From Paludibacteraceae bacterium (lineage in GTDB: Bacteria; Bacteroidota; Bacteroidia; Bacteroidales; Paludibacteraceae): a stretch of 38,906 nucleotides of DNA. The position numbers and the translations under genes are program-made. Where the stretch lies: contig JAFPGA010000183.1 of assembly GCA_017423085.1 (NCBI GenBank), positions 1 through 38,906 of the forward strand. The letters run 5' to 3'. The notes below the pieces were generated by a model. It saw only the letters and a program-made list of their open reading frames with translations. It did not search any database and was not told the DNA's origin. Below, one piece after another: positions 1 to 38,106 of the stretch; position 1 is the first letter of the stretch, and every line of letters starts with the position of its first letter.

Positions 1-2954
1 GTACCGGACTCTGTTGTACGGAAACGTACTTTGGTAGCAATCTCATCGAGTTGGAGGGTTCCTGAAGCTGTTGCGTCTGTACCTACCACTTGATTGTATA
101 TCGTCTGCCATCCCCATACACCGTCCACTTTCGTATATTGATCTACCATCAACGCTGCATAGGTCGGTTTAATTATGCCGCCGGCCCAACCGCTTTTTTC
201 TCCATGTTTTGCAGAGAAGGTGAGCGTTGTCGGTGTTCCGTTCAAAGTATATTCCCTCTCCAGACTGCCTTCGCTCAGCGTCAACGAACCGACAGACAAT
301 GCCATTTCGTTACACTGCGAAGCAGGGTTACGAACGATGACGTAGTTCACTGCGCTTACTTCCAACCACTCTACGTCCAAGGAATCTAATCCACCTGCCT
401 GTGTAGCGGTGACATAGGTCTCGCCTTCACCTACCACAATCAGCATGTTACCTTCTACACGTACCACATTCTCGTTCGCCGAAGTATAAACGATTTCCAT
501 ACCGCTGGTAGCAGTAGCGTTCAGTTCAACCGGCTCGCTGGTCGTCAGCAGACCATAGAGATTCTGATCCCAGGTGATGACTTGTTTTTGCAGTGCCGTT
601 ACGGTAAAGGTTTGTGTATCGCTTACCTCTGCGTACTCGTTGTTTCCTGCCTGATGAGCGGTGATCTCAGCCGTTCCGACTGCCTTTGCCACCAAGATAG
701 TATCATCGATTACCTCAATGATTTCGCTGTCGCTGGAAGTGTAGGTAATCAGCTCTCCACTCTGTGCCGTTGCAATAACAGCCATTTCCTCGCTCGGATA
801 ACGCTCTCCTACGTTCATCGCATAACCCGTTGCGACCAAGTCTGCGTTCCAATTGATCGTTTGGATACGCTTGGTTGTTTCTGCGCTTACATAAATAGTC
901 TTGGTGTAAGCATCATTCCCGTTGCTAATGGTGATATACGCTTCGTTGCTACCAACCTCTCCCGTGTGAGTATAAGAAATAGAAATCTCCTGCGAACCCA
1001 GTTGGTCATAGTTGGCAAACTCAGACGGAGAAACCGTGAAACGCGGGTTGCTGCTCTCTACCGTCATCGGCGCGATATTACACCAGTTCACATTCGCCGT
1101 TTTGACAACTTCTCCGGAGTAAATAACCGCAGAACCGAAATCAATACTTGCCGGTTCGGGATCTTGCACGTACTTCAATTCGCTGATGTGTATATTGCGG
1201 ATGTAGGCACCGAAGTTACCCGAATAACAGAGTAACACATAACGGGTTGTCGGTTGCAACTGAATGGAGTAACTCTTAAAGGTTGTTCCATCATAGGTAT
1301 CCAGCCAGATGTTCTCAGACGGCATAGAAGAGGTAGCACTCTCTTTTACAAACCACTCCACATTCGTCACACCGCCTAACAAAGTACCGATACCTCCACC
1401 GACAGAAGAAGGAATAGCGATCTCGAATGTCAACTTATCGGGAATACCCTCAAAATGCAGAATGACATACTTGTCGTCATTGTTAAATCCGCCACCACCT
1501 ACATCACCAAGGATGATACCATTCTCGTTATCCCACGAGTTACTACCCTCCGAAGCAACTTTAACCGGATCATAATTCCAAACAGAAGCACTCATCGTAA
1601 GCGGCAAGTGAAGCGGATCGCTCTCTACCGTCACTTGGAACTCCACATACGTCGTTCCATAGGTGTCCGTTTCCGGCAAGGTTGCACGGAAAGTAGCCGT
1701 ACCGATCTCACCTGCTTTGATAACACCATCCTTATACGAAGCATAAGCGCCGCCACTAACCGTTGTGACTACCACTTCTGCGTCAGATACTTTATTGAAC
1801 GAAATCGTAGCTGTTTTTCCCTGGAAAATAATTACGCTCGATTGCTCCACACCATTGAGAAGAACCGACAGACTCGGAGTCTTCTTATTGACGGTAATGG
1901 ATAATTCTTCTTGCTTGTAAACCAACTCATCTGTTTCCTGTTGCGTGATGGTGATAGTAGCCGTTCCGACACCAACACCTGTGAGCGCACCTGTTTCTGC
2001 GTTGTACTCCACGATACCGGCAGGAGTAATCTGGACAGAAGGATTATTGACATTCGTTAAGGTCAATTGAGCCGTTTGGTCCAACTCAATCTCAGTTCTG
2101 TCCAACACAAACATCGGGGTATATTTAGTTGCCCAATGTGCAATGAGGTTCATATCAGCAGTCGGTCTGATGACCGTTCCTGTTGTTCCAACCCACGCCT
2201 CGCCGTTATACCATCCGTCAAACAGGGAGCCGGTTTTGGTAGCTTCCGGCAGCGTAATTGCGCCATCAGCCCAAACGGCATAAAGGTCAAACACCTCATT
2301 TTCTGTGGTTGTCAAATTATAGATACTCTGACCATTCGTATAAACGACTGCGCCGTTCTCCGATCTTGCCCATCCGCTGAACGTATAGTTGGCTGTCGTT
2401 CCCGTCTCAGCACACTCGCCTTCGTTCGCATCATACGTAACGGCATACTGACGAACAAATGCATTCGCTGTCAGAGGCGTAGATGCATCGTACGAGATAG
2501 CCTGATTTGCCATTTCACCGGAAGTAGCACCGTTACCATGGAACGCCATGTAGTACTTAATCGGAATAAAGATACCTGCGTAATAAGAATTCTGCGCTCC
2601 GATGCCGGTAGCCGACTGTGTAACGCTCTGTCCTTGTCCGGTCAAATCACTGGTATTGGTAAGAGTTGTCTTACTGTTGTAATTGCTCTCATTGGTTTTA
2701 TACCAGTTACGGAAATTGTATCCCGGATTGGCTTTGTAAAACAAATAGAACGTCTTGTTTCCGCTGGCGCCGAAACCACCTTGCTCATCATGATCATCGG
2801 TGTACGTAAATTCTGCCGGAGGTGTATTCGACGTCTGAACATCTACATATCCACCTGCTTGAGGAGATGAATAAACGTACACATGTGCTTGTCCGCCCCA
2901 CATCTGGCCTAAGCCAAGAAGGACCACACTAAGTAATGTAAAGATTTTTTTCAT
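1..2954 (-). CDS. Large secreted cell-surface (adhesin-like) protein. The N-terminus is present and the C-terminus lies beyond the left window edge. It contains Listeria-Bacteroides-type repeats and Ig-like repeats.
   Basis: This gene is missing from the ORF track because it is open at the window edge. The minus-strand frame from ATG 2954 reads MKKIFTLLSVVLLGLGQMWGGQAHV (signal peptide). I hand-translated the stretch around 2340-2470 and codons 122..3 and both are stop-free and in frame; the rest was read only roughly by eye. Segments YAVTYDANEGE..YTFSGWARS..DLYAVWA and GSLFDGWYNGE fit the Listeria-Bacteroides (Flg_new) repeat pattern. The long plus-strand ORFs here (582-1235, 2067-2870 and others) behave as antisense shadows. 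Confidence 0.75.
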   Translation of the reverse strand, partial: MKKIFTLLSVVLLGLGQMWGGQAHVYVYSSPQAGGYVDVQTSNTPPAEFTYTDDHDEQGGFGASGNKTFYLFYKANPGYNFRNWYKTNESNYNSKTTLTNTSDLTGQGQSVTQSATGIGAQNSYYAGIFIPIKYYMAFHGNGATSGEMANQAISYDASTPLTANAFVRQYAVTYDANEGECAETGTTANYTFSGWARSENGAVVYTNGQSIYNLTTTENEVFDLYAVWADGAITLPEATKTGSLFDGWYNGEAWVGTTGTVIRPTADMNLIAHWATKYTPMFVLDRTEIELDQTAQLTLTNVNNPSVQITPAGIVEYNAETGALTGVGVGTATITITQQETDELVYKQEELSITVNKKTPSLSVLLNGVEQSSVIIFQGKTATISFNKVSDAEVVVTTVSGGAYASYKDGVIKAGEIGTATFRATLPETDTYGTTYVEFQVTVESDPLHLPLTMSASVWNYDPVKVASEGSNSWDNENGIILGDVGGGGFNNDDKYVILHFEGIPDKLTFEIAIPSSVGGGIGTLLGGVTNVEWFVKESATSSMPSENIWLDTYDGTTFKSYSIQLQPTTRYVLLCYSGNFGAYIRNIHISELKYVQDPEPASIDFGSAVIYSGEVVKTANVNWCNIAPMTVESSNPRFTVSPSEFANYDQLGSQEISISYTHTGEVGSNEAYITISNGNDAYTKTIYVSAETTKRIQTINWNADLVATGYAMNVGERYPSEEMAVIATAQSGELITYTSSDSEIIEVIDDTILVAKAVGTAEITAHQAGNNEYAEVSDTQTFTVTALQKQVITWDQNLYGLLTTSEPVELNATATSGMEIVYTSANENVVRVEGNMLIVVGEGETYVTATQAGGLDSLDVEWLEVSAVNYVIVRNPASQCNEMALSVGSLTLSEGSLEREYTLNGTPTTLTFSAKHGEKSGWAGGIIKPTYAALMVDQYTKVDGVWGWQTIYNQVVGTDATASGTLQLDEIATKVRFRTTESG

Positions 2955-3012: not shown

Positions 3013-3043
3013 CAAAATTACTACTTTTTTTTGATATAACAAA
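3013..3043 (-). promoter_or_regulatory. Bacteroidetes sigma-A type promoter for the large surface-protein gene
   Basis: On the minus strand: TTTG (3043-3040), 19 nt, TAATTTTG (3020-3013). This matches the TTTG-N19-21-TAnnTTTG consensus and lies about 59 nt upstream of ATG 2954. Confidence 0.4.
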
Positions 3044-3126
3044 AAAATCGTACGCGTACGCGCACGAATAATAATTAGGTGTAGCCGATTCTTAAAGAAA
3101 AGACCGTTTCGCTGATAGAATATAGA

Positions 3127-3393
3127 CTACTCTATTACTCCGGCATCTTTCCAGGCTTTCAGAGTAGCTTCGACATCTTGGAGCGCTTGAGCGGGAGTGA
3201 CATCGTATTCTGCACAAAGAGCTTTGCACAGTTTGTCGGCATCAAACTCACCCTGCTGCGCCTGTTCCCAAAGGAACGCCGCCGTCTCGTTGAGCGTGAT
3301 CATCTTATTGAAATTGATAAGCGTGATTGATTCGCCTACCAGAATATACTCATTACCTAACTTACGCAGTTTAAAACCGTCAATTGTATGCAT
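3127..3393 (-). CDS. PqqD-family protein (stand-alone RiPP-recognition-element-like peptide chaperone)
   Basis: The product is 88 aa. ITLNETAAFLWEQAQQGEFDADKLCKALCAEYDVTPAQALQDVEATLKAWKDAGVIE follows the PqqD pattern (LN.t...iW..l.g..t..el...l...y.v....a..Dv..fl..L...G.i). It lies 19 nt downstream of the peptidase ORF. Confidence 0.7.
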   Translation of the reverse strand: MHTIDGFKLRKLGNEYILVGESITLINFNKMITLNETAAFLWEQAQQGEFDADKLCKALCAEYDVTPAQALQDVEATLKAWKDAGVIE

Positions 3394-3412
3394 TGAAATT
3401 AAAAATTAAAAA

Positions 3413-3877
3413 TTAAGAATTATAACACCACGCCAAAACCGTGTGACGATATATCTTTAACAACCATTTGCGGACGGGGAAGAGGTGATACCATACTCGT
3501 CCGCGTGTGATCGTCTTATTCCGCCCATCGGGTCGCTGAATCGCTGCTACACGACCGATGATGTCTTCGCGGCGGCAGTATTCTTCGCCGCGCAGGTTTC
3601 CGTCACCCTGCAGCACGCAGATTCGTTCCTCTCCGCGTTGCGCTATCCGCACCAAGCGATGCAGCACATAGGTTCTGCTGTTGTCCGGTGTCCGAACGCT
3701 TGCCAGAAGGATGTCTCCGACTTGCGGTTCGTCCGTCAGGGGCTTGAGAATCACACTGTCTTTACCGCCCTCAATGAACGGACGCATACTGACACCGGAG
3801 GGAGTGAAGAGCACTTCTTTGCGGTCTCGCAGCAGGTTGGCGAACTCAGGTATCAATATGTCGTTTTCTACCGTCAT
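3413..3877 (-). CDS. S24/S26-family serine peptidase, SipW/Sec11-like (predicted Ser/His), with no signal anchor
   Basis: The product is 154 aa. It has GVSMRP (nucleophile Ser motif), VGDILL, YVLHRLV about 43 residues after the Ser, and QGDGN, which resembles the KGDNN box of S26B peptidases. There is no N-terminal hydrophobic segment. Its ATG overlaps the stop of the upstream ORF (ATGA at 3874-3877). Confidence 0.7.
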   Translation of the reverse strand: MTVENDILIPEFANLLRDRKEVLFTPSGVSMRPFIEGGKDSVILKPLTDEPQVGDILLASVRTPDNSRTYVLHRLVRIAQRGEERICVLQGDGNLRGEEYCRREDIIGRVAAIQRPDGRNKTITRGRVWYHLFPVRKWLLKIYRHTVLAWCYNS

Positions 3878-4416
3878 TCGGTCACCACCCGCAAGCAGTT
3901 ACATGCATTCGTTTGGTACGTGATGGATTTGATATACATCGTCGAACCACTGGATTGACGCACTATCTTGAGACAATACGCGCCTTTAGACGGCATCGCC
4001 ACCTCAATAGAGTTAATATCCACCGATATTCCCGAAGTTATCTGCGTCCAACTATCGCCATCGTCCGACGAGATATAAAAGTCCACATTAGCTGCATTGG
4101 CAGGAGTGCGCCAAAGGATGATTTTCGTCAGGTTCTCCACCGCCGGAGCAGTGGTCACATAACTACCACTGCTCGGCAGATTGAGAGAAACCGTCGCCGC
4201 GTCTTCCGCGAGACCAAATGTTCCACTTGTGCCGCACGTATAAGTCAGCTCCGGCGTTAACGTCGTTACACCGACCGTATAACCGCTTGGCCAAGCCAGC
4301 GTCTTTCCACTCATTTCATGGAAATTATGCGTATTGGCAGTTAATACTGCATGGCTATTCGCCACGCAAAACGCCAAGAGGCACAGGGTTGCGCTATAAC
4401 GAAGAAAATGTTTCAT
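3874..4416 (-). CDS. Small secreted hypothetical protein (180 aa, signal peptide, beta-rich)
   Basis: MKHFLRYSATLCLLAFCVANSHA|VL is a classic signal peptide with an SHA cleavage motif. ATG 4416 abuts the protease stop codon (4417-4419). I recognise no family. Confidence 0.65.
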   Translation of the reverse strand: MKHFLRYSATLCLLAFCVANSHAVLTANTHNFHEMSGKTLAWPSGYTVGVTTLTPELTYTCGTSGTFGLAEDAATVSLNLPSSGSYVTTAPAVENLTKIILWRTPANAANVDFYISSDDGDSWTQITSGISVDINSIEVAMPSKGAYCLKIVRQSSGSTMYIKSITYQTNACNCLRVVTE

Positions 4417-6738
4417 TTATTCTACGCGTACACCGGTGAGGGTATAAACCTCTTCACCGCGAATGATTACCATTTGTCCGTTACGGATTGCTTTGACAGC
4501 TGCCGGTTGAGCGATCGTTACCTGCTCAACTCCTGTACCGCTTGTACAAGCCGTGCTATAGTCGCTATACGAAGCACCGCCACCTTCGCCACCGATCTCC
4601 AGGTCGAAGTACTCGGTGCCATTAAGATTGCTGGTTGCATAAGCGCCGAAGACGTTATATTCCCCTGCACGGAAGATGAGCGCACGACCTGCATTAGCCG
4701 ACGAATTAACACGCCATGTTCCTTTCGAACCATTCTCCACAGACCAAGTCTGTGCCGTATTGGACAAGCTGACGTTGGTTTTGGATCCGTTGGTCAGATA
4801 CTTGCCGCCGGTCTGGATGGTAAATCCGCCACTGACCGGTGTCAGCAAAAAATCTGCTGCATCTGCTTCGTTGGTTGTACTCTGCAACTTGTTATTGTTT
4901 ACCGTAGCCGCAGCGTAATACTTTGTATTACCTATCTGTGCATAGATCTTGAACGTACCACCAGTAGTACCGTCGAAAGCTGCTTCACCGCTTTCGCCCT
5001 CGCCTTCTTGATCAGCAAAGACAGCATAGAAGACTGCTCCCTCTTCCACCGCGTCACCGGCTTTCGCAAAGGTCGGAGCGGTGGTCTCGCTGCTATAGTT
5101 GGCTTGGCTGCACCAGCCTACGAATACGCGTCCATCGGAACAAGCCACAGGATCCGTTTCCGGCAATGTCAGTGTGCCGGTACTTTGAATAGTCTCGTAC
5201 GGTTTGCCAAAGGCAACAAAGTTCACATCAAACGGATCTACCGGAATCACCGGCTCCTCAATATAGGTCAAAGTTACGACTCCATTCGACTCTGCAATAT
5301 TTAATAACGGTTTACCGCTCACGCCGGACCATGAAGTCTTATTGCCGGTTCCCGGGAAGGGGTTCTTCGGACAGTTATCCGTAGAACCATCCCATCCGAT
5401 CTTGGTTCCGGTAGCAGAAACAACGGTATAGAGCGGAGCTCCGCTGGTTTCTGAGTTATTCGGCGCGTTATTCTCCCAAGCGGATTCATTGAAATTGACT
5501 TTCCAGATGAGCATGCCGTGTCCGGTGAGCGGAGCATCCCAGCCCACAGCCTGACGGTTTTCGATATAATAGCGCAGACCAGCCGTCGTCGGACCGACAT
5601 AGTTTCCGTTTGAGGTGATCTGATACGCCTGATAATTCTCCGTTCCGTTTGCATAGAGCGTTACGTTCTGACCTTCATTACCCAAGTTAACGGTAGTATG
5701 CCAGCCGAAGAACTCTTTCTCCCACGGGTCGTAGTTAGGCGGGCAGTGTCCGTCACCGTTGTAGCTACCACCGTCCATAATATCCCAGTCGTTCGGCGTA
5801 AGATTATTATCATAAACCGTTCCATAATCAGTATCGTACAGATCCGGCAGACCCAATACGTGTCCAAACTCATGGCAGAGCGTACCGATACCACCTAACG
5901 AGTTACGAGACATCTCACCCGACATGGCATAGTTATCAATCCTCTTACCGCCTACTTTGCATTCCGAAGCAGAATAGGTACAATTGCCATAATAACGCGC
6001 TGACTCAACCGACCAGTTATGCGGCCAAATGGTCTCGGATGTACCACCGTCTGCCTGACCTTTACCGGCATAGATAACATAGACAAAGTCCACGTAGCCA
6101 TCATTATCGGAGTCGTAGTCTGCCCAGTTTATGGTAAACTGCTCATTCGCCAAACGACAGCCTTCTATTACCGCATCAGTAGCATGCTGATCATCGCCCT
6201 CTTTATCTCCATCCGTACCGTAATAAGCCACATTGCGGCTCAAGGTCACAGGACCGAACACGTCAAACTGGGGACGATACGCACCGTTACTCTGGTCCGC
6301 AAAATACTGCGCAGCAGACGGATAGCCGGCATTCACCGTACAGTTGGTCGAGTTGCACAACTCGTCAAACGTAGCCTGCGTGTGACCGCTCTGCATGTTC
6401 TTGTCGCTGAAGTTCACCAAAATAACGACTCCTTTAGGTGCCAAGTTCGGCTGCGTACCGATGTCTTTGCGCTGGCGACGCGCTACTGCTTTGGCGCGAC
6501 GTGCTTTCGCTACTGCGGGTGACGGTGCTTCACCAATCACCTCATACATTCCATTGATTTCACGTACCTGCTTGCCGTCACGATTAATCGTATAGTGATA
6601 GAACTCATCACCAATCACCTGCACTTCGATGGTTGTGCCATCCGCTTGCGTGCGTGTCTGCCATCCGCGGCGTGCGGGAACAGCGTTTGCAGCCATGACG
6701 AGACTGCACAATACTGCAACAATTACAATCCTCTTCAT
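4417..6738 (-). CDS. M6-family (immune inhibitor A-like) zinc metalloprotease with a C-terminal extension and a T9SS C-terminal sorting domain
   Basis: The zinc motif is HEFGHVLGLPDLYD. The signal peptide is MKRIVIVAVLCSLVMAANA. The tail VKAIRNGQMVIIRGEEVYTLTGVRVE is a type-A T9SS CTD. I set the start at ATG 6738 rather than 6786 because a promoter -7 box (6784-6791) lies inside the longer ORF. Confidence 0.85.
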   Translation of the reverse strand: MKRIVIVAVLCSLVMAANAVPARRGWQTRTQADGTTIEVQVIGDEFYHYTINRDGKQVREINGMYEVIGEAPSPAVAKARRAKAVARRQRKDIGTQPNLAPKGVVILVNFSDKNMQSGHTQATFDELCNSTNCTVNAGYPSAAQYFADQSNGAYRPQFDVFGPVTLSRNVAYYGTDGDKEGDDQHATDAVIEGCRLANEQFTINWADYDSDNDGYVDFVYVIYAGKGQADGGTSETIWPHNWSVESARYYGNCTYSASECKVGGKRIDNYAMSGEMSRNSLGGIGTLCHEFGHVLGLPDLYDTDYGTVYDNNLTPNDWDIMDGGSYNGDGHCPPNYDPWEKEFFGWHTTVNLGNEGQNVTLYANGTENYQAYQITSNGNYVGPTTAGLRYYIENRQAVGWDAPLTGHGMLIWKVNFNESAWENNAPNNSETSGAPLYTVVSATGTKIGWDGSTDNCPKNPFPGTGNKTSWSGVSGKPLLNIAESNGVVTLTYIEEPVIPVDPFDVNFVAFGKPYETIQSTGTLTLPETDPVACSDGRVFVGWCSQANYSSETTAPTFAKAGDAVEEGAVFYAVFADQEGEGESGEAAFDGTTGGTFKIYAQIGNTKYYAAATVNNNKLQSTTNEADAADFLLTPVSGGFTIQTGGKYLTNGSKTNVSLSNTAQTWSVENGSKGTWRVNSSANAGRALIFRAGEYNVFGAYATSNLNGTEYFDLEIGGEGGGASYSDYSTACTSGTGVEQVTIAQPAAVKAIRNGQMVIIRGEEVYTLTGVRVE

Positions 6739-6783
6739 TTGTGTTTTTATATTAGTAAAATATAGTTCGCTCCTAAAAGCGTG

Positions 6784-6815
6784 CAAAGGTACTGCTTTTT
6801 TCTGACATATGCAAA
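6784..6815 (-). promoter_or_regulatory. Promoter of the protease/peptidase/PqqD operon
   Basis: On the minus strand: TTTG (6815-6812), 20 nt, TACCTTTG (6791-6784), about 45 nt upstream of ATG 6738. Confidence 0.5.
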
Positions 6816-6934
6816 TTTAGAGCACAAAAAAACGACTTTATGCGCATATTTCTCTTACCGAACTATTTCTTCGACATTTCGAATGTGGAAAAATTGACGG
6901 TTTTTGCCGAAAATCAATTTTTACACCTTTTTTA

Positions 6935-6966
6935 TTTGCATATGTGCGTAAAAAGTTGTAATTTTG
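6935..6966 (+). promoter_or_regulatory. Promoter of the 7050-8537 gene
   Basis: TTTG (6935-6938), 20 nt, TAATTTTG (6959-6966). The leader to ATG 7050 is about 80 nt. Confidence 0.45.
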
Positions 6967-7049
6967 TAGTCGATTTGCAAAGTATAGTTGTCAAAACACT
7001 ATAAAACAACCAATTTTTTCGTTTAACTAAAAACAAAACACAAAACACA

Positions 7050-8537
7050 ATGAAAAAGATTTTCACATTCGCAGCAGCCATTTTGGCAAGCGCAGCAATG
7101 ATGGCCGCAGAGCCGACTTACGAATCTTATGATTGGGCAAGTGCAGCCGATATGGCAGCAGGTCTTGCAGGTGATGAAGCTGTATCGATTGCTGTAGTAA
7201 CATCCGGAAGTGACGGAAATGTTAGCGGTCACTGGTACAAAGCACTGAACAGTGCTATTGACGGAAGTGCCGACAATTTAGGAACTTACCTGTCTATTTC
7301 AGCAGCAAGTCAAATTGACTCCGTTGAGATATTCTTCTGCCCGAACGGCACCAACAATACCAATTTAGCTTGGGCAGGCTGGGGCCAAGGTGTAACTCCG
7401 AACCAAGAAGTAGGTACAAACTACGGCACAACAGCAAGTGTAAAATCTTCTAAATCCTGGGATAATGCTGTATGGCAAAAGATTGATTTGTCTGATAAGG
7501 AGATATACACCATTTATATCAGCCGTCAAGGAAAGAAATTAAAAAACAATAGCACAATCGACAACTTCGGTGATAACCAAACTGTTAACCTCCTTGGTCT
7601 TCGCGTTTGGCTCGCTAGCAGCACTCCTGTTACCGATCCTGTTGCAGAAGTTACCATTGCCGGTCCGACGGAGTGCTTCGTTGGTCAAAAGGCTACTTAC
7701 ACCGCTACTACCGATGTAAAAGCTACCAGCTATCAGTGGTATATTGGTTCGGATGCTGTAGAAGGAGCTACATCTGCTAAATTTGAGTTCACTCCGGACG
7801 CAATTGGTTCGTACAGCATTTCGTGCAACGCATCGAATGAGAACAACTCTGAGGCTGCTTCGTCGAATGTTATTACTCTCACCGTTACCGAGCGTCAGGC
7901 TCTGGAGCAAGTTGTTGTTACCGACCATACCACCTGGGACTTCTCGAAGGCTGCTACGGTTAGCCAGATCAAGTGGGAAGGCGACCAAAAAGACGCTGCT
8001 CCGGTTGTAATGGCAAACATTGACGGCATGAACAATGACGCTAACTTCAACAGCCAGGCTCTCTTGTTCTCGGGTGAGTATCCTATCCGTGACGGCAAGT
8101 ACTGCCAAGGCCCGCACTTGGAGTTCGCTATCAATGCTCCGGGTCTGCTGACCATTGTGTACAGCAACACGGGTAACCGTACGGCAGAAGAGGGTGAGAC
8201 CGAAGGCCAAGAGGCGCTGCGTCGTTTCCTCACCATCAATGGTCAGCTGGTTCCGGGTGATGCAGGTTCGATGAAGAGCAACGTGAACACGACGACCGCG
8301 AACATCGCTGTTGAGCCGGGTAATGTAGTTATCAGCGGAGCTATGCCTTACGGAGCGGATCCGACCGCTGCCCAGTACATTCGTATCTACAAAGTGATTT
8401 ACCAACGTACCGGTTGGCCAACCGCAATTGACAACAATGAGGTTGAGTTGAAGGCTGTTAAGCGCATTGTAAACGGTCAACTCTTGATTGAGAAGAACGG
8501 CGTTATGTACAACGCACAGGGTGTAGTGGTCAAATAA
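7050..8537 (+). CDS. Secreted hypothetical protein with an Ig/PKD-like repeat and a T9SS C-terminal sorting domain
   Basis: Signal peptide: MKKIFTFAAAILASAAMMAA. Ig-like segment: VTIAGPTECFVGQKATYTATT..YSISCNASN. The tail VKRIVNGQLLIEKNGVMYNAQGVVVK resembles the tails of both proteases. Confidence 0.8.
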   Translation: MKKIFTFAAAILASAAMMAAEPTYESYDWASAADMAAGLAGDEAVSIAVVTSGSDGNVSGHWYKALNSAIDGSADNLGTYLSISAASQIDSVEIFFCPNGTNNTNLAWAGWGQGVTPNQEVGTNYGTTASVKSSKSWDNAVWQKIDLSDKEIYTIYISRQGKKLKNNSTIDNFGDNQTVNLLGLRVWLASSTPVTDPVAEVTIAGPTECFVGQKATYTATTDVKATSYQWYIGSDAVEGATSAKFEFTPDAIGSYSISCNASNENNSEAASSNVITLTVTERQALEQVVVTDHTTWDFSKAATVSQIKWEGDQKDAAPVVMANIDGMNNDANFNSQALLFSGEYPIRDGKYCQGPHLEFAINAPGLLTIVYSNTGNRTAEEGETEGQEALRRFLTINGQLVPGDAGSMKSNVNTTTANIAVEPGNVVISGAMPYGADPTAAQYIRIYKVIYQRTGWPTAIDNNEVELKAVKRIVNGQLLIEKNGVMYNAQGVVVK

Positions 8538-8577
8538 GACATTTATAGCACGTGAAATTGCACTCAAATTGGGTAGG

Positions 8578-8621
8578 ACTTGCCTCCGACTTGACTCCGA
8601 TGTGAGTCCGATGTGACCCCA
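8578..8621 (+). repeat. Four tandem degenerate 11-mers (ACTTGcCTCCG ACTTGaCTCCG ATGTGAGTCCG ATGTGACCCCA)
   Basis: Read directly from the sequence. The repeat sits in the 3' UTR or intergenic region after the stop at 8537 and is flanked by AATTGGG (8567-8573) and CCCAATT (8618-8624). Confidence 0.4.
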
Positions 8622-8642
8622 ATTCCGAAATGCAACATTTTC

Positions 8643-8675
8643 AAGAGCATCTCTTCGCGAGGTGCTCTTTTTGTG
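8643..8675 (+). terminator. Rho-independent terminator of the 7050-8537 gene
   Basis: An 11-bp stem, AAGAGCATCTC (8643-8653) with GAGGTGCTCTT (8659-8669) and one G-U pair, a TTCGC loop, then a T-rich tail. Confidence 0.6.
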
Positions 8676-8733
8676 TTTTTAATGTTGTATTTATTGCAAA
8701 ATTGCAACTATTTTACTAATTTTTAGTAAAAAT

Positions 8734-8765
8734 CTTGCATATGTGCGAAATTTGTAGTAAATTTG
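8734..8765 (+). promoter_or_regulatory. Promoter of the mlaEF-like operon
   Basis: CTTG (8734-8737), 20 nt, TAAATTTG (8758-8765), 26 nt before ATG 8791. Confidence 0.45.
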
Positions 8766-8790
8766 CACGCTTTTTGTAAGTTGGAGTAAT

Positions 8791-9528
8791 ATGCATATCT
8801 TTCAACACATAGGGGAATACATGCTTCTGATGGGTCGCGTGCTGCGTTTGCCGGACAGGCAACGTATGTTCTGGCGGCAATACAGCCGTGAGTTGGAGAA
8901 GCAGGGCTTACAATCGCTGCCTATTGTGCTGTTGATTTCCGTCTTTATCGGTGCCATTCTCACGATTCAGGCCAAGACCAACACATCCAACCCCTTACTG
9001 CCGACCTATATCACGGGTCTGCTAACGCGTGACACGCTGCTGCTGGAGTTCTCAAGCACCATCTTGTGTTTGATTCTGGCAGGAAAAGTAGGCAGTAACA
9101 TTGCTTCCGAAATCGGCACCATGCGCATCACCGAGCAGATTGATGCGATGGAGATAATGGGTGTGAACAGTGCCAACTATCTCATTCTGCCGAAGATATT
9201 GGCATTCATGAGCATGATGCCGTTCCTGTTCATCATCTCCACGACAGCCGGTCTGGTCGGAGGTTGGGCGGTCGGTGCGTTCACAGACATCATCACCGTA
9301 CACGATTACCTGATAGGCGTGCAATATGCGTTCAATCCGTATTTTATCTGGTACGCGATTATCAAAGCGCTCATCTTCGCGTTCGTGATCACGAGTATGG
9401 CAAGTTACTACGGCTATTACGTCAAAGGCGGTGCGCTTGATGTCGGCAAAGCAAGCACGAGTGCCGTTGTGAACAGTAACATAATGATTTTGTTTTTAGA
9501 CCTCATTTTATCCAAACTGCTCTTATGA
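8791..9528 (+). CDS. mlaE: MlaE-family ABC transporter permease
   Basis: The product is 245 aa and polytopic. Its length and the pattern LPIVLLISVFIGAILTIQ...GVNSANYLILPKILA fit MlaE/YrbE. It overlaps the following ATPase gene by 4 nt. Confidence 0.8.
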   Translation: MHIFQHIGEYMLLMGRVLRLPDRQRMFWRQYSRELEKQGLQSLPIVLLISVFIGAILTIQAKTNTSNPLLPTYITGLLTRDTLLLEFSSTILCLILAGKVGSNIASEIGTMRITEQIDAMEIMGVNSANYLILPKILAFMSMMPFLFIISTTAGLVGGWAVGAFTDIITVHDYLIGVQYAFNPYFIWYAIIKALIFAFVITSMASYYGYYVKGGALDVGKASTSAVVNSNIMILFLDLILSKLLL

Positions 9529-10286
9529 TTGAAGTGAAAGACATAGTGAAGTCGTTTGACGGCGAAGTGGTGCTGAATCATGTGAGCACGGAGTTGAAGG
9601 ACGGAGAGGTGAACATGATCATCGGTCAGTCAGGTTCGGGTAAGACGGTGCTGATGAAGTGCCTGATCGGTCTGCACCCGCTGGACGGAGGGCAGATATT
9701 ATACGACGGGCGCGATTTGGCTGAGATGCGCAACAAAGATATCCGTTTGCTGCACCGCGAAGTGGGCATGCTGTTCCAAGGCTCGGCGCTGTTTGACAGC
9801 ATGACGGTCATGGAGAATGTGCTATTTCCGATGGAGATGTTTTCGCACAAGACGAAAGAAGAGATGCGTGAACGGGCGGAGTTCTGCTTGCGGCGCGTGG
9901 AGATGCCGGAGAAAGTGTGGAATCTGATGCCGGGCGAGATCTCCGGCGGTCAGCAGAAACGTGTGGCTATTGCGCTGGCTATCGTGCTTGAACCCAAATA
10001 CCTGTTCTGCGACGAGCCAAACTCGGGTCTGGATCCCAAAACGAGTCTGGTGATCGACGCGCTGATACAGGACATCACACGCGAGTTCAATATCTGCACC
10101 ATCGTAAACAGCCACGACATGAACTCAATCATGGAAATCGGGGACAATGTGATTTTCCTCAAAGACGGCAAGAAAGAGTGGCAGGGTTCGCGGCACGAGA
10201 TCATGAACAGCGAGAACAAAGCGCTGAACGACTTTGTGTTTGCGAGTGAACTGTTCAAGAAAGTTCGAACCGCTGCAAGCAACTGA
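9525..10286 (+). CDS. ABC transporter ATP-binding protein (MlaF-like)
   Basis: Walker A GQSGSGKT, signature ISGGQQKRVAIA, Walker B LFCDEPNSGLD. Translationally coupled to the permease gene. Confidence 0.85.
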   Translation: MIEVKDIVKSFDGEVVLNHVSTELKDGEVNMIIGQSGSGKTVLMKCLIGLHPLDGGQILYDGRDLAEMRNKDIRLLHREVGMLFQGSALFDSMTVMENVLFPMEMFSHKTKEEMRERAEFCLRRVEMPEKVWNLMPGEISGGQQKRVAIALAIVLEPKYLFCDEPNSGLDPKTSLVIDALIQDITREFNICTIVNSHDMNSIMEIGDNVIFLKDGKKEWQGSRHEIMNSENKALNDFVFASELFKKVRTAASN

Positions 10287-10313: not shown

Positions 10314-10658
10314 ATGAAAAAGATTGTTTTGATGATAGCCGTGATGGCTATGATGAGCGTCAGAGTCTGCTATGCAGACGGTCCGGCTAAAGTACCTGCG
10401 TACCGCGGGATTATCGAACGCGTGCAACCGAACGGGGACACGCTGCGCACGTACCTGCGCGGAGACGAACACCGTCACTGGATGATGACGGAAGACGGCT
10501 GGCAAATCAAAGAAAGCAAAAAAGGCTGGCTGAAGTATGTGAAGATGAACCGCAAAGGACAAGTGGTGCTGAGTTGCCGCAAGGCACATAACGCAGACCA
10601 ACGCCGCAAATGCGAACAACGGTGGTTGGAGAAGCACGGAGTGAAGAAAGAGTTGTAG
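10314..10658 (+). CDS. Secreted 114-aa protein that is a paralogue of the N-terminal (pro-domain-like) region of the M6 proteases
   Basis: After a signal peptide, VPAYRGIIERVQPNGDTLRTYLRGDEHRHWMMTEDGWQI aligns with VPARRGWQTRTQADGTTIEVQVIGDEFYHYTINRDGKQV (protease 1) and VPARRGGVVRTAADGTEKTVFLNGDEFFHYITDADGNWL (protease 2). A basic tail follows, as in both proteases. There is no catalytic domain. Confidence 0.6.
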   Translation: MKKIVLMIAVMAMMSVRVCYADGPAKVPAYRGIIERVQPNGDTLRTYLRGDEHRHWMMTEDGWQIKESKKGWLKYVKMNRKGQVVLSCRKAHNADQRRKCEQRWLEKHGVKKEL

Positions 10659-10680
10659 ATTGGAGATTGAAGATTTTATT

Positions 10681-12258
10681 ATGAGGAAATTATTGGGCAT
10701 AGTAGTACTATGTGCTGTCGCAGCGAGTGCGATAGCGGTTCCGGCGCGCCGTGGAGGTGTTGTCCGGACAGCAGCAGACGGAACAGAGAAAACGGTGTTC
10801 CTAAACGGAGATGAGTTTTTCCACTACATCACCGATGCGGATGGAAACTGGTTGGACGAAGAGACCCTTCTGCCGATGACAGAAGAGGCGGTAAGCGAGA
10901 AATTAAAATTTCAGGAAAAGGCGGAAGCCAAACGCGCCAAGGTTCGTCGGGCTAAAACGGAGACGGGATTAGACCGTCTGTTGTCTCCGCGCGGAGCGGT
11001 GATTCTGGTCAGCTACGCCGACAAAGCGTTTAGCAGTTCGCATGATGCTATGGTCGAATGGGCGATGGGAGAGAACTACACGTACAACGGAGCTACCGGT
11101 TCGATTCACCAGTATTTCTGGGATCAGAGCTGGGGTCAATACGATCTTCAGATAGATGTATACGGTCCGGTAACAGTTAGCAAAGGCTACGCTTACTACG
11201 GTAAAGACAGCGGTGGAGAAGGAAACGACCAACACGCGGATGAGTTGATCGTGGAAGCATGTAAAATCGCCCATGATTCACTCGGCGCTGATTTCAGCCA
11301 ATACGATTGGGACAACGACGGTAATGTAGATTGGGTAGTTGTCATTTATGCTGGAAAAGGACAGGCTGACGGTGGTGCATCCAACACCATTTGGCCGCAC
11401 CAGTATGACCTCAGTTATACCGGAATGAGCTTTAAGTTGGATGGCAAATGGGTGGATCACTATTGTTGTTTGAATGAGATCGACGGGAGTAGCGGCAAGC
11501 GCTGCGGTATCGGTACGTTCTGCCACGAGTTCAGTCATGTCATGGGTCTGCCGGATTTCTATGCCACCAACGAAGCTACCCACCATACGCTGTGCGATTG
11601 GGATGTCATGGACTACGGACCCTATCTGAACAACGGTAACACACCTCCTTCTTATTCCGCGTACGAGCGCTGGTTCATGGGTTGGTTCGAACCCACGCTG
11701 GTCAACAGCGAAGCGAGTGTTATCTTGGGTCCGCTGAACGAAGGAGCCGCTGTGTATATGACGGCGAGCGGAAATGCCATTTCAGATATTCTGTCTCCCA
11801 ATCCGTCCACGTTCTACCTCTTTGAGTACCGTCAGAAAAAAGGATGGGATGCCTATTTGCCGGGCGAAGGAATGCTGATCACGAAAGTGCAGTGGAACGA
11901 ATACAAGTGGTACAATAATACTGTAAATAACACATCCAGTAGCATGGGTGTGGATATCATTGAGGCCAAAAAGAATACCACCAGCGGTTATAGCACTAAA
12001 GCAAGAGCTACCGATTTATATCCGGCAGGTGCAGATTCGTTCACGAGCATCAGTGCTTACCAAGTGACCAATATTGTACTGGAGAACGAACTCATTACCT
12101 TTGACGTGAACGGCGGAGGAAACGAGATCAATCTGGGCATAGACGATGTGAACGGGGACAAGGTGCAGTGCACAAAGGTACTGCTCAACGGGCAAGTGTA
12201 TATTATCCGCAACGGCGCTGTATATGACCTGAACGGTCGTATGGTGACTGCGCAGTAA
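10681..12258 (+). CDS. M6-family (InhA-like) zinc metalloprotease with a T9SS C-terminal sorting domain
   Basis: Zinc motif HEFSHVMGLPDFY. Signal peptide MRKLLGIVVLCAVAASAIA, so I prefer ATG 10681 over the track start 10660. Tail: KVLLNGQVYIIRNGAVYDLNGRMVTAQ. Confidence 0.85.
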   Translation: MRKLLGIVVLCAVAASAIAVPARRGGVVRTAADGTEKTVFLNGDEFFHYITDADGNWLDEETLLPMTEEAVSEKLKFQEKAEAKRAKVRRAKTETGLDRLLSPRGAVILVSYADKAFSSSHDAMVEWAMGENYTYNGATGSIHQYFWDQSWGQYDLQIDVYGPVTVSKGYAYYGKDSGGEGNDQHADELIVEACKIAHDSLGADFSQYDWDNDGNVDWVVVIYAGKGQADGGASNTIWPHQYDLSYTGMSFKLDGKWVDHYCCLNEIDGSSGKRCGIGTFCHEFSHVMGLPDFYATNEATHHTLCDWDVMDYGPYLNNGNTPPSYSAYERWFMGWFEPTLVNSEASVILGPLNEGAAVYMTASGNAISDILSPNPSTFYLFEYRQKKGWDAYLPGEGMLITKVQWNEYKWYNNTVNNTSSSMGVDIIEAKKNTTSGYSTKARATDLYPAGADSFTSISAYQVTNIVLENELITFDVNGGGNEINLGIDDVNGDKVQCTKVLLNGQVYIIRNGAVYDLNGRMVTAQ

Positions 12259-12287
12259 GACCGCAAATCAATTGACTATTAGATAGT

Positions 12288-13049
12288 ATGAAAATCATCA
12301 GTTACAATCTGAACGGAATCCGTTCGGCGATCAACAAAGGGCTGTTGGACTGGTTGCAGTCCGAGAGCCCAGACGTGTTCTGCATCCAGGAGAGCAAAGC
12401 ACAGCCGGAACAAATCGATGTGATGGCGATGCAGGAGTTGGGATACCACAGTTATATCCACTCGGCTGAGAAGAAAGGGTACTCGGGCGTGTGTATCTTC
12501 TGCAAACGTGAGCCGGACAAGGTAGTCGTCGGTATGGGGAATCCCAAATACGACCGCGAAGGACGTGTACTGCGTGCCGATTTCGGAGACCTCACCGTAG
12601 TGGATGCGTATATCCCGAGCGGCACAACCGGAGACGTGCGTCAGGATTTCAAGATGGAGTTTCTGGAGGATTTTCTGGTGTGGGTGAATGAGTTGCGCAA
12701 AGAGCGTCCGAACCTCATCATCTGCGGCGATTACAACATCTGCCATAAGCCGATTGACATCAATCACCCCGAACGACAAATCGGTGTATCGGGCTTCCTG
12801 CCGGAAGAACGCGAGTGGATGGACCGCTGGGAAGCAAGCGGACTGGTGGATTCGTTCCGTGTGTTCGACCAGAGTGCCGAGCGATACAGTTGGTGGAGTT
12901 GGCGCGCCGGCGCCCGCGCACGCAACGTAGGCTGGCGTATTGATTACCTGTGGGTTACGGATACCATTAGGGACCGATTAGTTAATGGAAAGATTCTAAC
13001 CGAAGCCGTTCATTCGGATCATTGTCCGGTTGCACTATGGATAAACTAA
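12288..13049 (+). CDS. xth: Exodeoxyribonuclease III (AP endonuclease)
   Basis: [14 protein letters not shown]...FCIQESK...GDYNICH...SDHCPV are the characteristic ExoIII/EEP motifs. The product is 253 aa. Confidence 0.9.
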
Positions 13050-13780
13050 GAACAGAACATCTGGTAAAGAAATACGGTAAGCGAACCGTAGTGGACGATG
13101 TGTCTATCGAGCTGGAGCAAGGCGAGATAGTAGGTCTGTTGGGTCCGAACGGAGCCGGTAAGACGACCACGTTCTACATGACGACCGGTCTGGTAGCTGC
13201 CAATAACGGGCGTATCTTCCTCAACGACATGGATATCACCTCCTATCCTATGTACAAACGTGCGAAGATGGGTATCGGGTATCTGCCGCAGGAAGCGAGT
13301 GTGTTCCGCAAAATGACGGTGGAAGACAACATCCGTTCGGTGCTGGAACTGAGCGATTTCAGCAAAGAGTATCAGGCAGAGAAACTGGAGCAACTCATCA
13401 AGGAGTTCAACTTGGCGCACGTGCGCAAGAACCTCGGTGACCGGTTGAGCGGTGGCGAACGCCGTCGTACGGAGATAGCCCGCTGTTTGGCGATAGAACC
13501 CAAGTTCGTCATGCTCGACGAACCGTTTGCGGGCGTGGACCCTATTGCGGTGCAGGAGATTCAGGACGTGGTGTGGCGACTCAAAGACAAGAACATCGGT
13601 ATTCTCATCACCGACCACAACGTGGACGAGACGCTGATGATCACCGACCGCGCGTACCTGCTGTTCGAAGGCAAGATCCTGTTCCACGGCACGCCGGAAG
13701 AGTTGGCTGCCAACCCTGTCGTGCGACAGAACTACTTAGGACGCGACTTTGAGCTGAAGCGGAAGACAAAGGCTGAATAA
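13037..13780 (+). CDS. lptB: LPS export ABC transporter ATP-binding protein LptB
   Basis: [56 protein letters not shown] and [10 protein letters not shown] are typical of LptB. I prefer the start at MDKL (13037); the track gives 13022. It overlaps the end of xth. Confidence 0.85.
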
Positions 13781-13786
13781 AGGCGA

Positions 13787-14767
13787 ATGACGAAAGGCGA
13801 AAGGTTCATAGTATGTCTCCTTGCCGTGCTGATTCTGAGTGCTTGTCAGAGAGTGCCGGAAGTGGAGTTGAGCGTACGTACGTGTGCGCCCATTCCTGAG
13901 GGCGTTGCGAGTGCATGCGCGTGCGTCTTGGACGGCAAAGCCTACGTGTTCGGCGGACGGGATAAAGACGGGCATTATCTGGATTCCGTTTGGTCATACG
14001 ACCCACAGACAGACCGCTGGACCAATATGGGCAGCACACCTATGCGTCCGCGCGTCAAAAGCGTGTGCGCTGTCTATGACGGAGCTATCTATACCGGTCT
14101 TGGTTTCGGAGAAGGTAATGTGTATATCGACAGTTGCTACCTGCGCGAATGGTGGAAATGGGAGCCCGGCACGAACACCTGGACGCGGCTGGCTGACTAT
14201 GAGAGCAAACGCACTATCTCCACTGTTCCTTATGTGTGCGACAACCGTATCTATACCATTTACGGAACGGACGGCTGTTTCTCCCGCGACATCACCTATT
14301 ACGATGTGCAGACCGACACGTGGCACACAGAGGCGGAGGACTGGCACCGCGCCAAATCGGTATTCGGCGGAGTGGGAGCAAAAGTGCAAGACCGCTGTTT
14401 TTTCGGTTTGGGTAACAACACCAGCAATCTGAACCAATGGTATGAAGTCCATCTGCCTACCGACACATGGATGCAACGAGCCTCCCTTCCCGGCAAAGGA
14501 CGTGCATTGAGTGCATGCTGCGCAACGGACCAATATATTTATATTTTCGGCGGACACTATCTTGCCGGAGAGTTGACCGGAGGAGAGGTTTTCGCCGATT
14601 ATCTTCGCTACGACCCGCTCAAAGACCAATGGGAACGATGCGGCGTGATGCCTTGCGGTCGTGCTGAGAACCAAATCGCTTTTACCATTAACGGTAAAGT
14701 CTATTTCGGTTTAGGCGAAGACGCAGAAGGAAAAATGATTCATTCACTATACTGCATTGAGGAATAG
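13787..14767 (+). CDS. Kelch-repeat beta-propeller lipoprotein
   Basis: The lipoprotein signal is LLAVLILSAC. There are repeated units of the type YVFGG....D.W.YD...D.W (AYVFGGRDKDGHYLDSVWSYDPQTDRWTNM, YIFGGHYLAGE...YDPLKDQWERC). Confidence 0.75.
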   Translation: MTKGERFIVCLLAVLILSACQRVPEVELSVRTCAPIPEGVASACACVLDGKAYVFGGRDKDGHYLDSVWSYDPQTDRWTNMGSTPMRPRVKSVCAVYDGAIYTGLGFGEGNVYIDSCYLREWWKWEPGTNTWTRLADYESKRTISTVPYVCDNRIYTIYGTDGCFSRDITYYDVQTDTWHTEAEDWHRAKSVFGGVGAKVQDRCFFGLGNNTSNLNQWYEVHLPTDTWMQRASLPGKGRALSACCATDQYIYIFGGHYLAGELTGGEVFADYLRYDPLKDQWERCGVMPCGRAENQIAFTINGKVYFGLGEDAEGKMIHSLYCIEE

Positions 14768-16190: not shown

Positions 16191-16191
16191 T

Positions 16192-16803: not shown

Positions 16804-16825
16804 AGACAAAAAGTTAACTCCTGTG

Positions 16826-18486: not shown

Positions 18487-18487
18487 T

Positions 18488-38032: not shown

Positions 38033-38106
38033 GGTGCGGTAGTTCAGTTGGTTAGAATACCGGCCTGTCACGCCGTAGGTCGCGAGTTCGAGTCTCGTCC
38101 GCACCG
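38033..38106 (+). tRNA. tRNA-Asp (anticodon GTC)
   Basis: I folded the cloverleaf by hand. The acceptor stem is GGTGCGG/CCGCACC with discriminator G. The D arm is GTTC/GAAT. The anticodon loop is CTGTCAC (GTC). The variable loop is AGGTC. The T arm is GCGAG-TTCGAGT-CTCGT. CCA is not encoded. Confidence 0.9.

Follow-up and report, generated by a model that had tools for sequence, protein, structure and literature searches.

A soluble S24/S26-like peptidase and a PqqD-family protein in a Paludibacteraceae operon, a probable leader-recognition and leader-cleavage pair

Here, we analysed a 38,906-nucleotide (nt) stretch of DNA from a Paludibacteraceae bacterium (GenBank assembly GCA_017423085.1, contig JAFPGA010000183.1; hereafter the window) and, in particular, a minus-strand operon whose last two genes encode a small soluble peptidase and a protein of the PqqD family of recognition elements (RREs) for peptides that are ribosomally synthesized and then post-translationally modified (RiPPs). 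An earlier, sequence-only reading of the same DNA had proposed that these two proteins recognize and remove the leader of an unrecognized substrate, the candidates being a neighbouring 180-amino-acid (aa) protein, the pro-region of a neighbouring protease or a peptide encoded elsewhere. Our comparison of the two proteins and of homologous loci supports the leader-recognition and leader-peptidase roles and favours the last of these candidates, a small peptide carrying a YxxP motif.

Results

Layout of the locus

The operon, the signals that flank it and the gene that follows it are arranged as follows.

6784..6815, minus strand: Bacteroidetes-type promoter of the four-gene operon, TTTG-N20-TAccTTTG (exact pattern match)
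4417..6738, minus strand: M6 (immune-inhibitor-A-like) metalloprotease, 773 aa from ATG 6738 (TIGR03296, E 1.5e-56; PF05547, E 1.4e-22)
3874..4416, minus strand: p180, a 180-aa secreted all-beta protein (alignment of 31 homologues)
3413..3877, minus strand: 154-aa S24/S26-like Ser/His peptidase, proposed leader peptidase (motifs, family profile and fold)
3127..3393, minus strand: 88-aa PqqD-family RiPP recognition element, proposed leader binder (PF05402)
3038..3067, minus strand: terminator-like hairpin (8-bp stem) with a T-run after the PqqD stop, operon end (sequence)
3013..3043, minus strand: separate Bacteroidetes-type promoter of the downstream giant gene (TTTG/TAnnTTTG pattern match)
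1..2954, minus strand: giant secreted surface protein, 5' part, >984 aa (signal peptide, Listeria-Bacteroides repeat, Big_2)

According to the list of open reading frames (ORFs) of the window, the genes for the M6 protease, the 180-aa protein, the peptidase and PqqD follow one another on the minus strand with almost no space between them. The stop TAA (4417-4419) of the protease abuts ATG 4416 of the 180-aa ORF, the latter overlaps the peptidase ORF in an ATGA (3874-3877) that couples the two translationally, and 19 nt separate the peptidase stop from the PqqD ATG, all as previously described. Since a sigma-70 scan is uninformative for Bacteroidetes (9 matches found in the window versus 6.0 expected), promoters were sought with the Bacteroidetes-type pattern TTTG-N18-22-TAnnTTTG. 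The window contains four matches to this pattern where 0.48 would be expected, a count reached by none of 100 shuffles, and all four lie just upstream of genes, namely the operon, the giant gene (3013-3043), a divergent 495-aa gene and a tRNA (38033-38106, plus strand). The promoter that the sequence-only reading had placed at 6784-6815 is the first of these and matches the pattern exactly. Together with the hairpin and T-run that follow the PqqD stop, this match makes it plausible that the four ORFs form one transcription unit.

A soluble, S24/S26-like Ser/His peptidase

The peptidase carries the motif GVSMRP with Ser30, the motif LHRL with His73 43 residues later and GDGN at positions 91-94, and it ends in a basic amphipathic helix. 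Its maximum Kyte-Doolittle mean over 19 residues is 0.60, and neither a transmembrane segment nor a signal peptide was found, in agreement with the motifs and the missing hydrophobic anchor of the earlier description. Ser30 and His73, the catalytic pair proposed there, do not vary, either among 24 close homologues or among a diverse set of 115 representatives with no more than 50% identity to one another. In the close homologues, the same holds for G91, D92 and G93. The diverse set is uniform at G28, S30, M31, P33, H73, R74, G91, D92 and E99, with G93 conserved in 114 of the 115 sequences.

The family is large, with more than 1,120 close homologues and 3,571 clusters at 50% identity (E <= 1e-3), 726 of them at E <= 1e-10. 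A homologue 66% identical to the window peptidase is labelled 'S24/S26 family peptidase' by NCBI, relatives pass the Pfam model PF00717 Peptidase_S24 (e.g. 34.6 versus 23.3 bits), and PF00717 is precomputed on most family matches. All 18 top PDB matches of the family profile were S24/S26 proteins, and its segments GnSMlP, vlHRi and LmGD align with SGSMEP, IVHRV and TKGD of SEC11A. The family profile was needed for this comparison, as a single-sequence PDB search with the peptidase returned spurious phosphofructokinase matches. An AlphaFold2 (AF2) model of the window peptidase (predicted local distance difference test, pLDDT, 77.7) displayed a mainly-beta peptidase fold whose top Foldseek matches were SEC11A/C, SipA, LexA and UmuD, albeit with weak scores (E 3e-3; template-modelling score, TM, 0.48). 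The S24/S26 assignment of the sequence-only reading was thus upheld by the conserved Ser and His, the alignment with SEC11A and the relatives that pass PF00717, and fell short in that the window protein itself scores below the curated cut-offs (TIGR02228, 36.8 bits versus 51.85, E 3.2e-9).

Taken together, the motifs, the profile and the model identify the protein as a predicted soluble Ser/His member of the signal-peptidase/LexA superfamily. Because relatives are fused to an ATP-dependent kinase and no hydrophobic segment is present, a cytoplasmic location is implied, as had been suggested from the missing anchor. As a separate observation, one S24-like domain was found joined to a CAAX intramembrane protease of the Rce1-like kind (415 aa, P0191) and another to SH3b and NlpC/P60 domains (541 aa, P0159).

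A PqqD-family recognition protein

The assignment of the 88-aa protein to the PqqD family is unambiguous from its sequence, and the earlier call was right: PF05402 matches residues 29-87 with 64.4 bits against a curated cut-off of 23.4 (E 1.2e-17). Weaker NCBIfam matches were obtained with lasso peptide B1 chaperones, the HPr-rel-A PqqD (TIGR04353) and the SynChlorMet PqqD (TIGR04248), and the best PDB sequence match was the lasso RRE TfuB1 (6jx3_B, E 0.14). The protein has no hydrophobic segment.

The pair is the constant part of the locus

A scan of species-representative genomes yielded 171 relatives, all of them Paludibacteraceae or uncultured Bacteroidales from the rumen and herbivore gut, and 80 loci were kept and annotated with profiles of the window proteins. 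The window-like (type B) set comprises 67 species loci, with denominators that vary by feature. In this set, the PqqD gene directly follows the peptidase gene in 65 of 65 loci. The p180 gene lies directly upstream of the peptidase in 51 of 66, with overlapping or abutting stop and start codons in 34, and a homologue of the giant surface protein is found downstream of PqqD in 49 of 63. An M6 protease is encoded upstream in 42 of 61 loci; elsewhere, a C10 protease replaces it (as in L100) or no protease lies upstream (as in L098 and L102).

The peptidase-PqqD pair is hence the constant of these loci and p180 and the giant gene are its frequent partners, while the linkage to the M6 protease is incidental, because that gene is present in only 42 of 61 loci and is otherwise replaced or missing. 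The M6 protease, which headed the sequence-only reading as a type IX secretion system (T9SS) substrate tied to the pair, is therefore not a defining part of the module. The conserved neighbourhood anticipated there held for the pair and for the 180-aa family, and not for the optional protease.

A wider cassette with kinase, nucleotidyltransferase and exporter

Twelve more distant Paludibacteraceae loci (type A, or triads) carry a third gene beside those for the peptidase and PqqD; it overlaps the PqqD stop and encodes an HprK/ScmC-like P-loop protein of ~300 aa (TIGR04249, E 1.7e-9; TIGR04352, E 8.4e-6); 2 of the 12 add a divergent PF14907 nucleotidyltransferase. A complete cassette of ScmC, Peptidase_S24, PqqD, NTP_transf_5 and an ABC exporter was seen in more distant homologues (L090-L096), e.g. 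in the Proteiniphilum locus L091 (GCA_034933325.1), and Pfam PF27840 (ScmC) is recorded on genes neighbouring the full-cassette peptidases. The same arrangement emerged from a metagenome survey, which covered 80 loci out of at least 568 matches to a scan from the close alignment (A5), human-gut and rumen samples included. Here, ScmC was directly upstream of the peptidase in 39 of 57 loci and PqqD directly downstream in 50 of 76, with an ABC exporter within 2 kb in 48 of 52 and a nucleotidyltransferase in 13 of 52. The partners also occur as single polypeptides, as four ScmC+S24 fusions (P0152, P0221, P0240 and L171) and two S24+PqqD fusions (P0201 and P0270) were identified.

In a rough neighbour-joining tree, the full-cassette peptidases are basal, the triads form a grade and the window-like peptidases make up one derived clade. 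Neither the window nor any window-like locus yielded a homologue of the kinase, the nucleotidyltransferase or the ABC exporter; in the window, the kinase and nucleotidyltransferase sought were of the ScmC-like and PF14907 types. Likewise, neither a B2 transglutaminase-like cysteine protease nor an asparagine-synthetase-like cyclase is present in the window, and the Pfam listings of loci L001-L008, L090-L096 and L098-L102 contain no lasso cyclase, B2 protease, radical-SAM or YcaO enzyme. The sequence-only reading could not match the pair to any described maturation module; the pair now appears as a reduced derivative of a widespread ScmC/S24/PqqD/(PF14907)/ABC cassette of Bacteroidales, a cassette that is itself apparently undescribed.

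Two arrangements among the related loci may be recorded alongside. In the human-gut locus L134, genes resembling Wza- and Wzc-type polysaccharide export (judged by N-terminal sequence only) split PqqD-NTP5-ScmC from S24-ABC. In L089, an RVT_1 reverse-transcriptase gene (52-1014) lies directly upstream of a ScmC+S24 fusion, and in two further loci a bAvd/23S_rRNA_IVP-like gene (127 aa, weak match) and a DUF1016/YhcG gene are inserted between two giant genes (L002 14919-16389, L003 14719-16196). These genes may point to retroelements near the loci.

Precursor-like YxxP peptides

Small ORFs with a YxxP motif were found beside full cassettes in seven loci (L090, L093, L104, L109, L146, L156 and L134). 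Their products are 44-66 aa long and share the leader ...Y-x-x-P-x-I-E-V-I-E-M-E...I-L-x-x-S-G..., as seen in the L090 ORF MTANQDQQEVKEAYEKPAIEVIEMEMEHPILASSGGDFEPGGEW, the L093 leader segment KEAYVKPTMEVIEMEVEDVILAGAGSD, the segments EVAYEKPAIEVIEMEMEQPVLVASGSDFEPDW of L104, ATYVKPAIEVIEMEMEGAILTDSATG of L109 and EQYETPRMEVIEMEIEGPILQMSGEHGGRQDW of L146, two copies of MNVKKEKEIYSQPLTEILELVFEENILQSGSGND in L156 and the human-gut variant KEYEAPQTTCLEVELEQGFMSGS of L134. Binding by lasso B1 proteins needs the leader motif YxxP(x)[L/I], with a Tyr at -17, a Pro at -14 and a Leu at -12 (PMC10368454), and Y-x-x-P followed by a hydrophobic residue is the same motif in the full-cassette precursors.

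A second family was found in the window-like loci, where a peptide gene lies -60 to +74 nt from the point at which the last giant ORF ends (18 loci), with its own TTTG/TAccTTTG promoter and convergent housekeeping genes after it. The 18 peptides (alignment A3) are 43-47 aa long, with the consensus MxKKxYIxPxxEIxxL....M...S..G....APxRRxPVF, in which Y, P and the terminal F are invariant; the Y and P of the motif are likewise present in all full-cassette precursors. These 18 loci were found among about 33 window-like loci whose end is visible. The family comprises 53 database clusters (E down to 7e-15) from Paludibacteraceae, and no Pfam or NCBIfam family matches it. Three look-ups that started from the type-B peptide all returned p180, the S24-like peptidase, PqqD, the giant protein and the peptide together.

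The two peptide families also recognize each other in profile searches. With a hidden Markov model (HMM) of the type-B peptides, full-cassette precursors were among the next-best matches after the family's own members, each individually weak; conversely, with an HMM of six full-cassette precursors, type-B peptides made up 8 of the 11 best non-self matches among 43,810 small ORFs. The window itself holds no YxxP-type small ORF and the leader motif is not visible in it; the sequence-only reading had likewise found no short precursor ORF. That reading had named a canonical RiPP enzyme and precursor close by the operon in relatives as an observation that would speak against it. In part this is what we see, since a precursor-like peptide gene follows the giant gene in related loci, which favours the peptide encoded elsewhere as the substrate; the Pfam listings given above show no radical-SAM, YcaO or lasso cyclase gene. 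The left edge of the window truncates the giant gene, so that the expected peptide position is out of view, and a small peptide gene immediately past this edge most likely encodes the precursor of the window operon. In a further locus (L009), the last giant gene runs off the end in the same way, and the peptide position is not in view.

Two outlying YxxP small ORFs stand apart. One, MKKQYLAPKSEKVNLDPLM...APARGPRFI (L083 774-944), lies 9 kb upstream of a triad locus; the other, MKKNYNQPQTELIEFAPETAICQIAMVSGEVGGKTPIEGD (L049 13714-13845, minus strand), belongs to a window-like locus without a giant gene after PqqD and is the best non-self match of the full-cassette HMM.

Proposed function and alternatives

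From the features above, we favour the view that the pair (3127-3877) probably acts in the cytoplasm as a leader-recognition and leader-cleavage unit, derived from a peptide-maturation cassette and directed at a YxxP peptide. The PqqD protein would bind the YxxP leader and present it to the peptidase, whose Ser30 and His73 would remove the leader in the cytoplasm and thereby free a C-terminal peptide of ~15-25 residues. Where the cassette is complete, the peptide would be decorated by the kinase, at times also by the nucleotidyltransferase, before the ABC transporter exports it. Loci in the lineage of the window (rumen and hindgut Paludibacteraceae) lack these three partners, and here the pair has become fixed in a unit of p180, peptidase, PqqD, giant protein(s) and the 43-47-aa peptide (in brief, MKKKxYxxPxxEIIxL...APxRRxPxF). 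Binding, cleavage, the cleavage site and the role of the released peptide are inferred. Lasso systems offer precedents: PadeB1 is needed for the PadeB2 protease to cleave and presents the leader (PMC5067487), HPr-like kinases phosphorylate lasso precursors and PsmN has been linked to glycosylation (PMC7533575). At a guess, with Tyr taken as position -17, cleavage might fall within the [IV]-[LM] pair conserved in both peptide families. Alternatively, it might fall 3 to 5 residues further on, in a run of small residues (A-S-S-G, A-G-S, A-D-S or S-G-S), which fits the -3/-1 preference of signal peptidases better.

Several findings weigh against this assignment. The window peptidase has no Pfam match and reaches no curated HMM cut-off in Pfam or NCBIfam. 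The window-like loci all belong to a single bacterial family, and inheritance rather than selection may explain some of their synteny; these loci also encode neither an exporter nor a modifying enzyme for a cleaved peptide. The expected position of the peptide gene lies past the left edge of the window, with none in view, and the contig of the nearest relative (L097, with a 96% identical peptidase) ends before its second giant gene. Only about 18 of the 33 visible locus ends have the peptide, with ~10 others carrying an unrelated Cys-rich membrane ORF of 190-215 aa instead; no convincing precursor was found beside the 12 triad loci, L089 or L095/L096; the E-values that join the two peptide families are marginal (0.009-0.16); and the type-B peptide could be tied to the giant gene and not to the pair.

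This last point leads to an alternative that we consider unlikely, in which the real substrate is a YxxP peptide encoded elsewhere and the peptide behind the giant gene has nothing to do with the pair, serving for instance as an accessory of the giant protein. The triad loci and L095, with no nearby precursor, show that unlinked precursors exist in the family, and the type-B peptide comes with a promoter of its own, stands 5-9 kb of giant gene away from PqqD and is absent from ~45% of the visible locus ends. However, every look-up from the peptide led back to the pair upstream, the type-B leader resembles that of precursors beside full cassettes, and 88 loci yielded no further YxxP small ORF. 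If the pair instead matured a secreted neighbour (p180, the M6 pro-region or the giant protein) in the cytoplasm, ahead of its export, this would suit the translational coupling of p180 with the peptidase and its upstream position in 51 of 66 loci, as well as the habit of S26 relatives such as the SipW-type enzymes, which serve dedicated neighbouring cargo. Yet p180, the M6 protease and the giant protein all have ordinary Sec signal peptides and lack any YxxP-like motif, and for this reason the 180-aa protein and the protease, the two protein candidates of the sequence-only reading, are poor substrates. Moreover, the M6 protease is dispensable, p180 is absent from 15 of 66 loci, and a peptidase that lacks an anchor and a signal peptide and is fused to a kinase in relatives would be expected to work in the cytoplasm on RRE-bound peptides; we regard maturation of these secreted neighbours as quite improbable.

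The loss of the kinase, nucleotidyltransferase and exporter from the locus could also mean that the pair is a remnant of the full cassette, left with no present substrate or re-used, e.g. in a self-cleaving or regulatory role of the LexA/UmuD kind; the S24 family does include self-cleaving regulators, and LexA and UmuD are among the fold matches. Such decay or re-use is very improbable in our judgement, given that the catalytic Ser, His and GDG are invariant and that gene order and overlapping start and stop codons have been kept across 67 species, although the peptidases have diverged to 50-55% identity. In addition, the peptidase lacks both a DNA-binding domain and, on the N-terminal side of its catalytic core, an Ala-Gly or Cys-Gly self-cleavage region. 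A cytoplasmic pair acting on a YxxP peptide is thus the interpretation that we retain. Going further, it is conceivable, if still doubtful, that an S24/LexA-superfamily peptidase was recruited as an RRE-dependent leader peptidase for a large, undescribed class of linear, probably phosphorylated RiPP-like peptides in gut Bacteroidales, akin to kinase-containing lasso clusters but without a cyclase, and that the stripped-down version of rumen Paludibacteraceae, limited to leader removal, yields a short peptide ending in APxRRxPxF that acts jointly with p180 and the giant protein, e.g. as ligand, cofactor or signal of a surface adhesin system.

Neighbouring secreted proteins and flanking genes

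The M6 ORF spans 4417-6786 when read from a TTG, and its likely true start is ATG 6738, which gives the N-terminus MKRIVIVAVLCSLVMAANA. N-terminal signal peptides are present in both the M6 protease and p180. The label of T9SS protease given to the former by the sequence-only reading could not be confirmed, as the C-terminal-domain models of that system (TIGR04183 / Por_Secre_tail; Pfam and NCBIfam) gave no match at E <= 1 to the whole protease or to its last 120 residues. Three secreted proteins of the window, M6_773 (4420-4500, minus strand), a 495-aa PKD-domain protein (8460-8534, plus strand) and M6_532 (12180-12255, plus strand), end in NGQxxIxRxGxxYxxxGxxV, which may, on sequence grounds, be an uncurated sorting signal.

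Apart from its signal peptide, p180 has a THNF motif and an invariant C-terminal CxC (alignment A4, 31 homologues). It belongs to no Pfam or NCBIfam family, and its AF2 single-sequence model (pLDDT 45.5) is unusable.

In each version of the cassette, the precursor gene adjoins large lipoprotein or surface genes, encoding 343 aa in L090 (region 5870-7092), 391 and 608 aa in L093 (region 10770-14018) and, in L134 (region 5997-9902), 834 aa together with a 393-aa putative outer-membrane protein (judged by N-terminal sequence only). The lipoproteins had no informative match in Pfam or NCBIfam. In the window-like loci, the giant protein holds the equivalent place.

The ORF that ends some of the window-like loci has a signal peptide, the motifs SYASPYKG, MAQAPxASM and GIYTSAS, many Cys residues and a C-terminal transmembrane helix, and no Pfam or NCBIfam family matches it.

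L017 17287, L023 16528, L046 17946 and L050 16591, minus strand: 190-215-aa terminal ORF (also in L052, L053, L057, L059, L047 and L070)

Farther along the plus strand of the window, a 114-aa secreted protein (10314-10658) is encoded between an MlaF-like gene and the second M6 protease and resembles a stand-alone copy of the 'VPARRG...GDE.(F/H)HY' segment that opens both M6 proteases of the window (6738-6600, minus strand; 10660-10850, plus strand). Most related loci show MlaE, MlaF, the 114-aa protein and M6 as a syntenic block. The near flank at 12288-22033 encodes an Exo_endo_phos protein, an ABC ATPase, a Kelch-repeat protein, Wzi, DUF4254, a GT9 heptosyltransferase, a Kdo/WaaP-type kinase, GT4 enzymes and a Wzy_C ligase, and is a lipopolysaccharide/capsule region unrelated to the peptidase and PqqD.

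Discussion

Significance

RRE-guided leader removal is known from the lasso B1/B2 proteins, and a Ser/His peptidase of the S24/S26 type in this role was not encountered in the literature. Our search covered the full text of the openly searchable literature and RRE surveys (subscription-only literature lay outside its scope) and returned no paper on an RRE-partnered leader peptidase of the S24 type or on an S24+PqqD cassette. In RRE-Finder, the discrete lasso-RRE model was the best match for ~8,000 proteins, about half of which have no lasso protease and cyclase and were treated as possible false positives (PMC7470986). The S24 cassette may account for part of this set. The cassette is testable with the candidate precursors in hand and could add a new leader peptidase, together with a new class of peptides, from abundant gut bacteria. 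The window-like version is unusual in keeping recognition and cleavage only, locked to giant surface-protein genes.

Comparison with known systems

Four known systems resemble the pair in part. As in the HPr-rel-A (TIGR04352/TIGR04353) and SynChlorMet (ScmC/ScmD) systems, an HprK-like or ScmC P-loop protein is paired with a PqqD chaperone in the relatives. The kinase of the relatives matches TIGR04249 (ScmC) and TIGR04352, and the window PqqD matches TIGR04353 and TIGR04248, all far below the equivalog cut-offs. Both systems are, to our knowledge, defined without an S24 peptidase, we know of no demonstrated function for either, and the SynChlorMet cassette includes radical-SAM enzymes. SodX, the maturation protease of nickel superoxide dismutase (NiSOD), is likewise a small soluble S26-like peptidase without an anchor, and trims a short N-terminal extension in the cytoplasm from a dedicated, linked substrate. 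Unlike SodX, the window peptidase has an RRE partner and no sodN gene in its locus, and its match to TIGR02754 is weak (E 0.0038, 17.7 bits versus a cut-off of 63.25); a SodX-like NiSOD maturation was accordingly rejected.

Among peptidases, the S26B signal peptidases (Sec11, SEC11A/C and SipW) give the best fold and profile matches and share GxSMxP, the xHR[IVL] His ~40 residues later and GD(G/N)N. In contrast to these enzymes, the window peptidase has neither transmembrane anchor nor signal peptide, its relatives are fused to a cytoplasmic kinase or an RRE, and its presumed substrate is an RRE-bound leader instead of a membrane-inserted signal peptide. Lacking an anchor, it is not a signal peptidase in function, and a true membrane signal peptidase was rejected as an explanation on this ground.

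The closest parallel is with the lasso clusters that have split B1 and B2 proteins, such as that of paeninodin (A, C, K, B1, B2 and D) and that of pseudomycoidin with PsmN. These differ from the present loci in using a transglutaminase-like cysteine protease, B2, where an S24/S26 Ser/His enzyme is found here, in the asparagine-synthetase-like cyclase, which is absent from every locus with listed Pfam content, and in the conserved Thr(-2), which the type-B and cassette leaders lack. Without B2 and cyclase, the locus is not a lasso cluster, and the kinase, nucleotidyltransferase and exporter of the kinase lasso clusters are missing from the window version as well. What is shared is a discrete PqqD-like RRE, for which lasso B1 proteins are the best NCBIfam and PDB matches, a YxxP(x)[L/I] leader motif near the N-terminus of the precursors (PMC10368454), a partner protease dependent on the RRE (PMC5067487), by analogy the role proposed for the peptidase here, and, in the full cassette, an HPr-kinase-like enzyme, a PF14907-type nucleotidyltransferase and an ABC exporter (PMC7533575).

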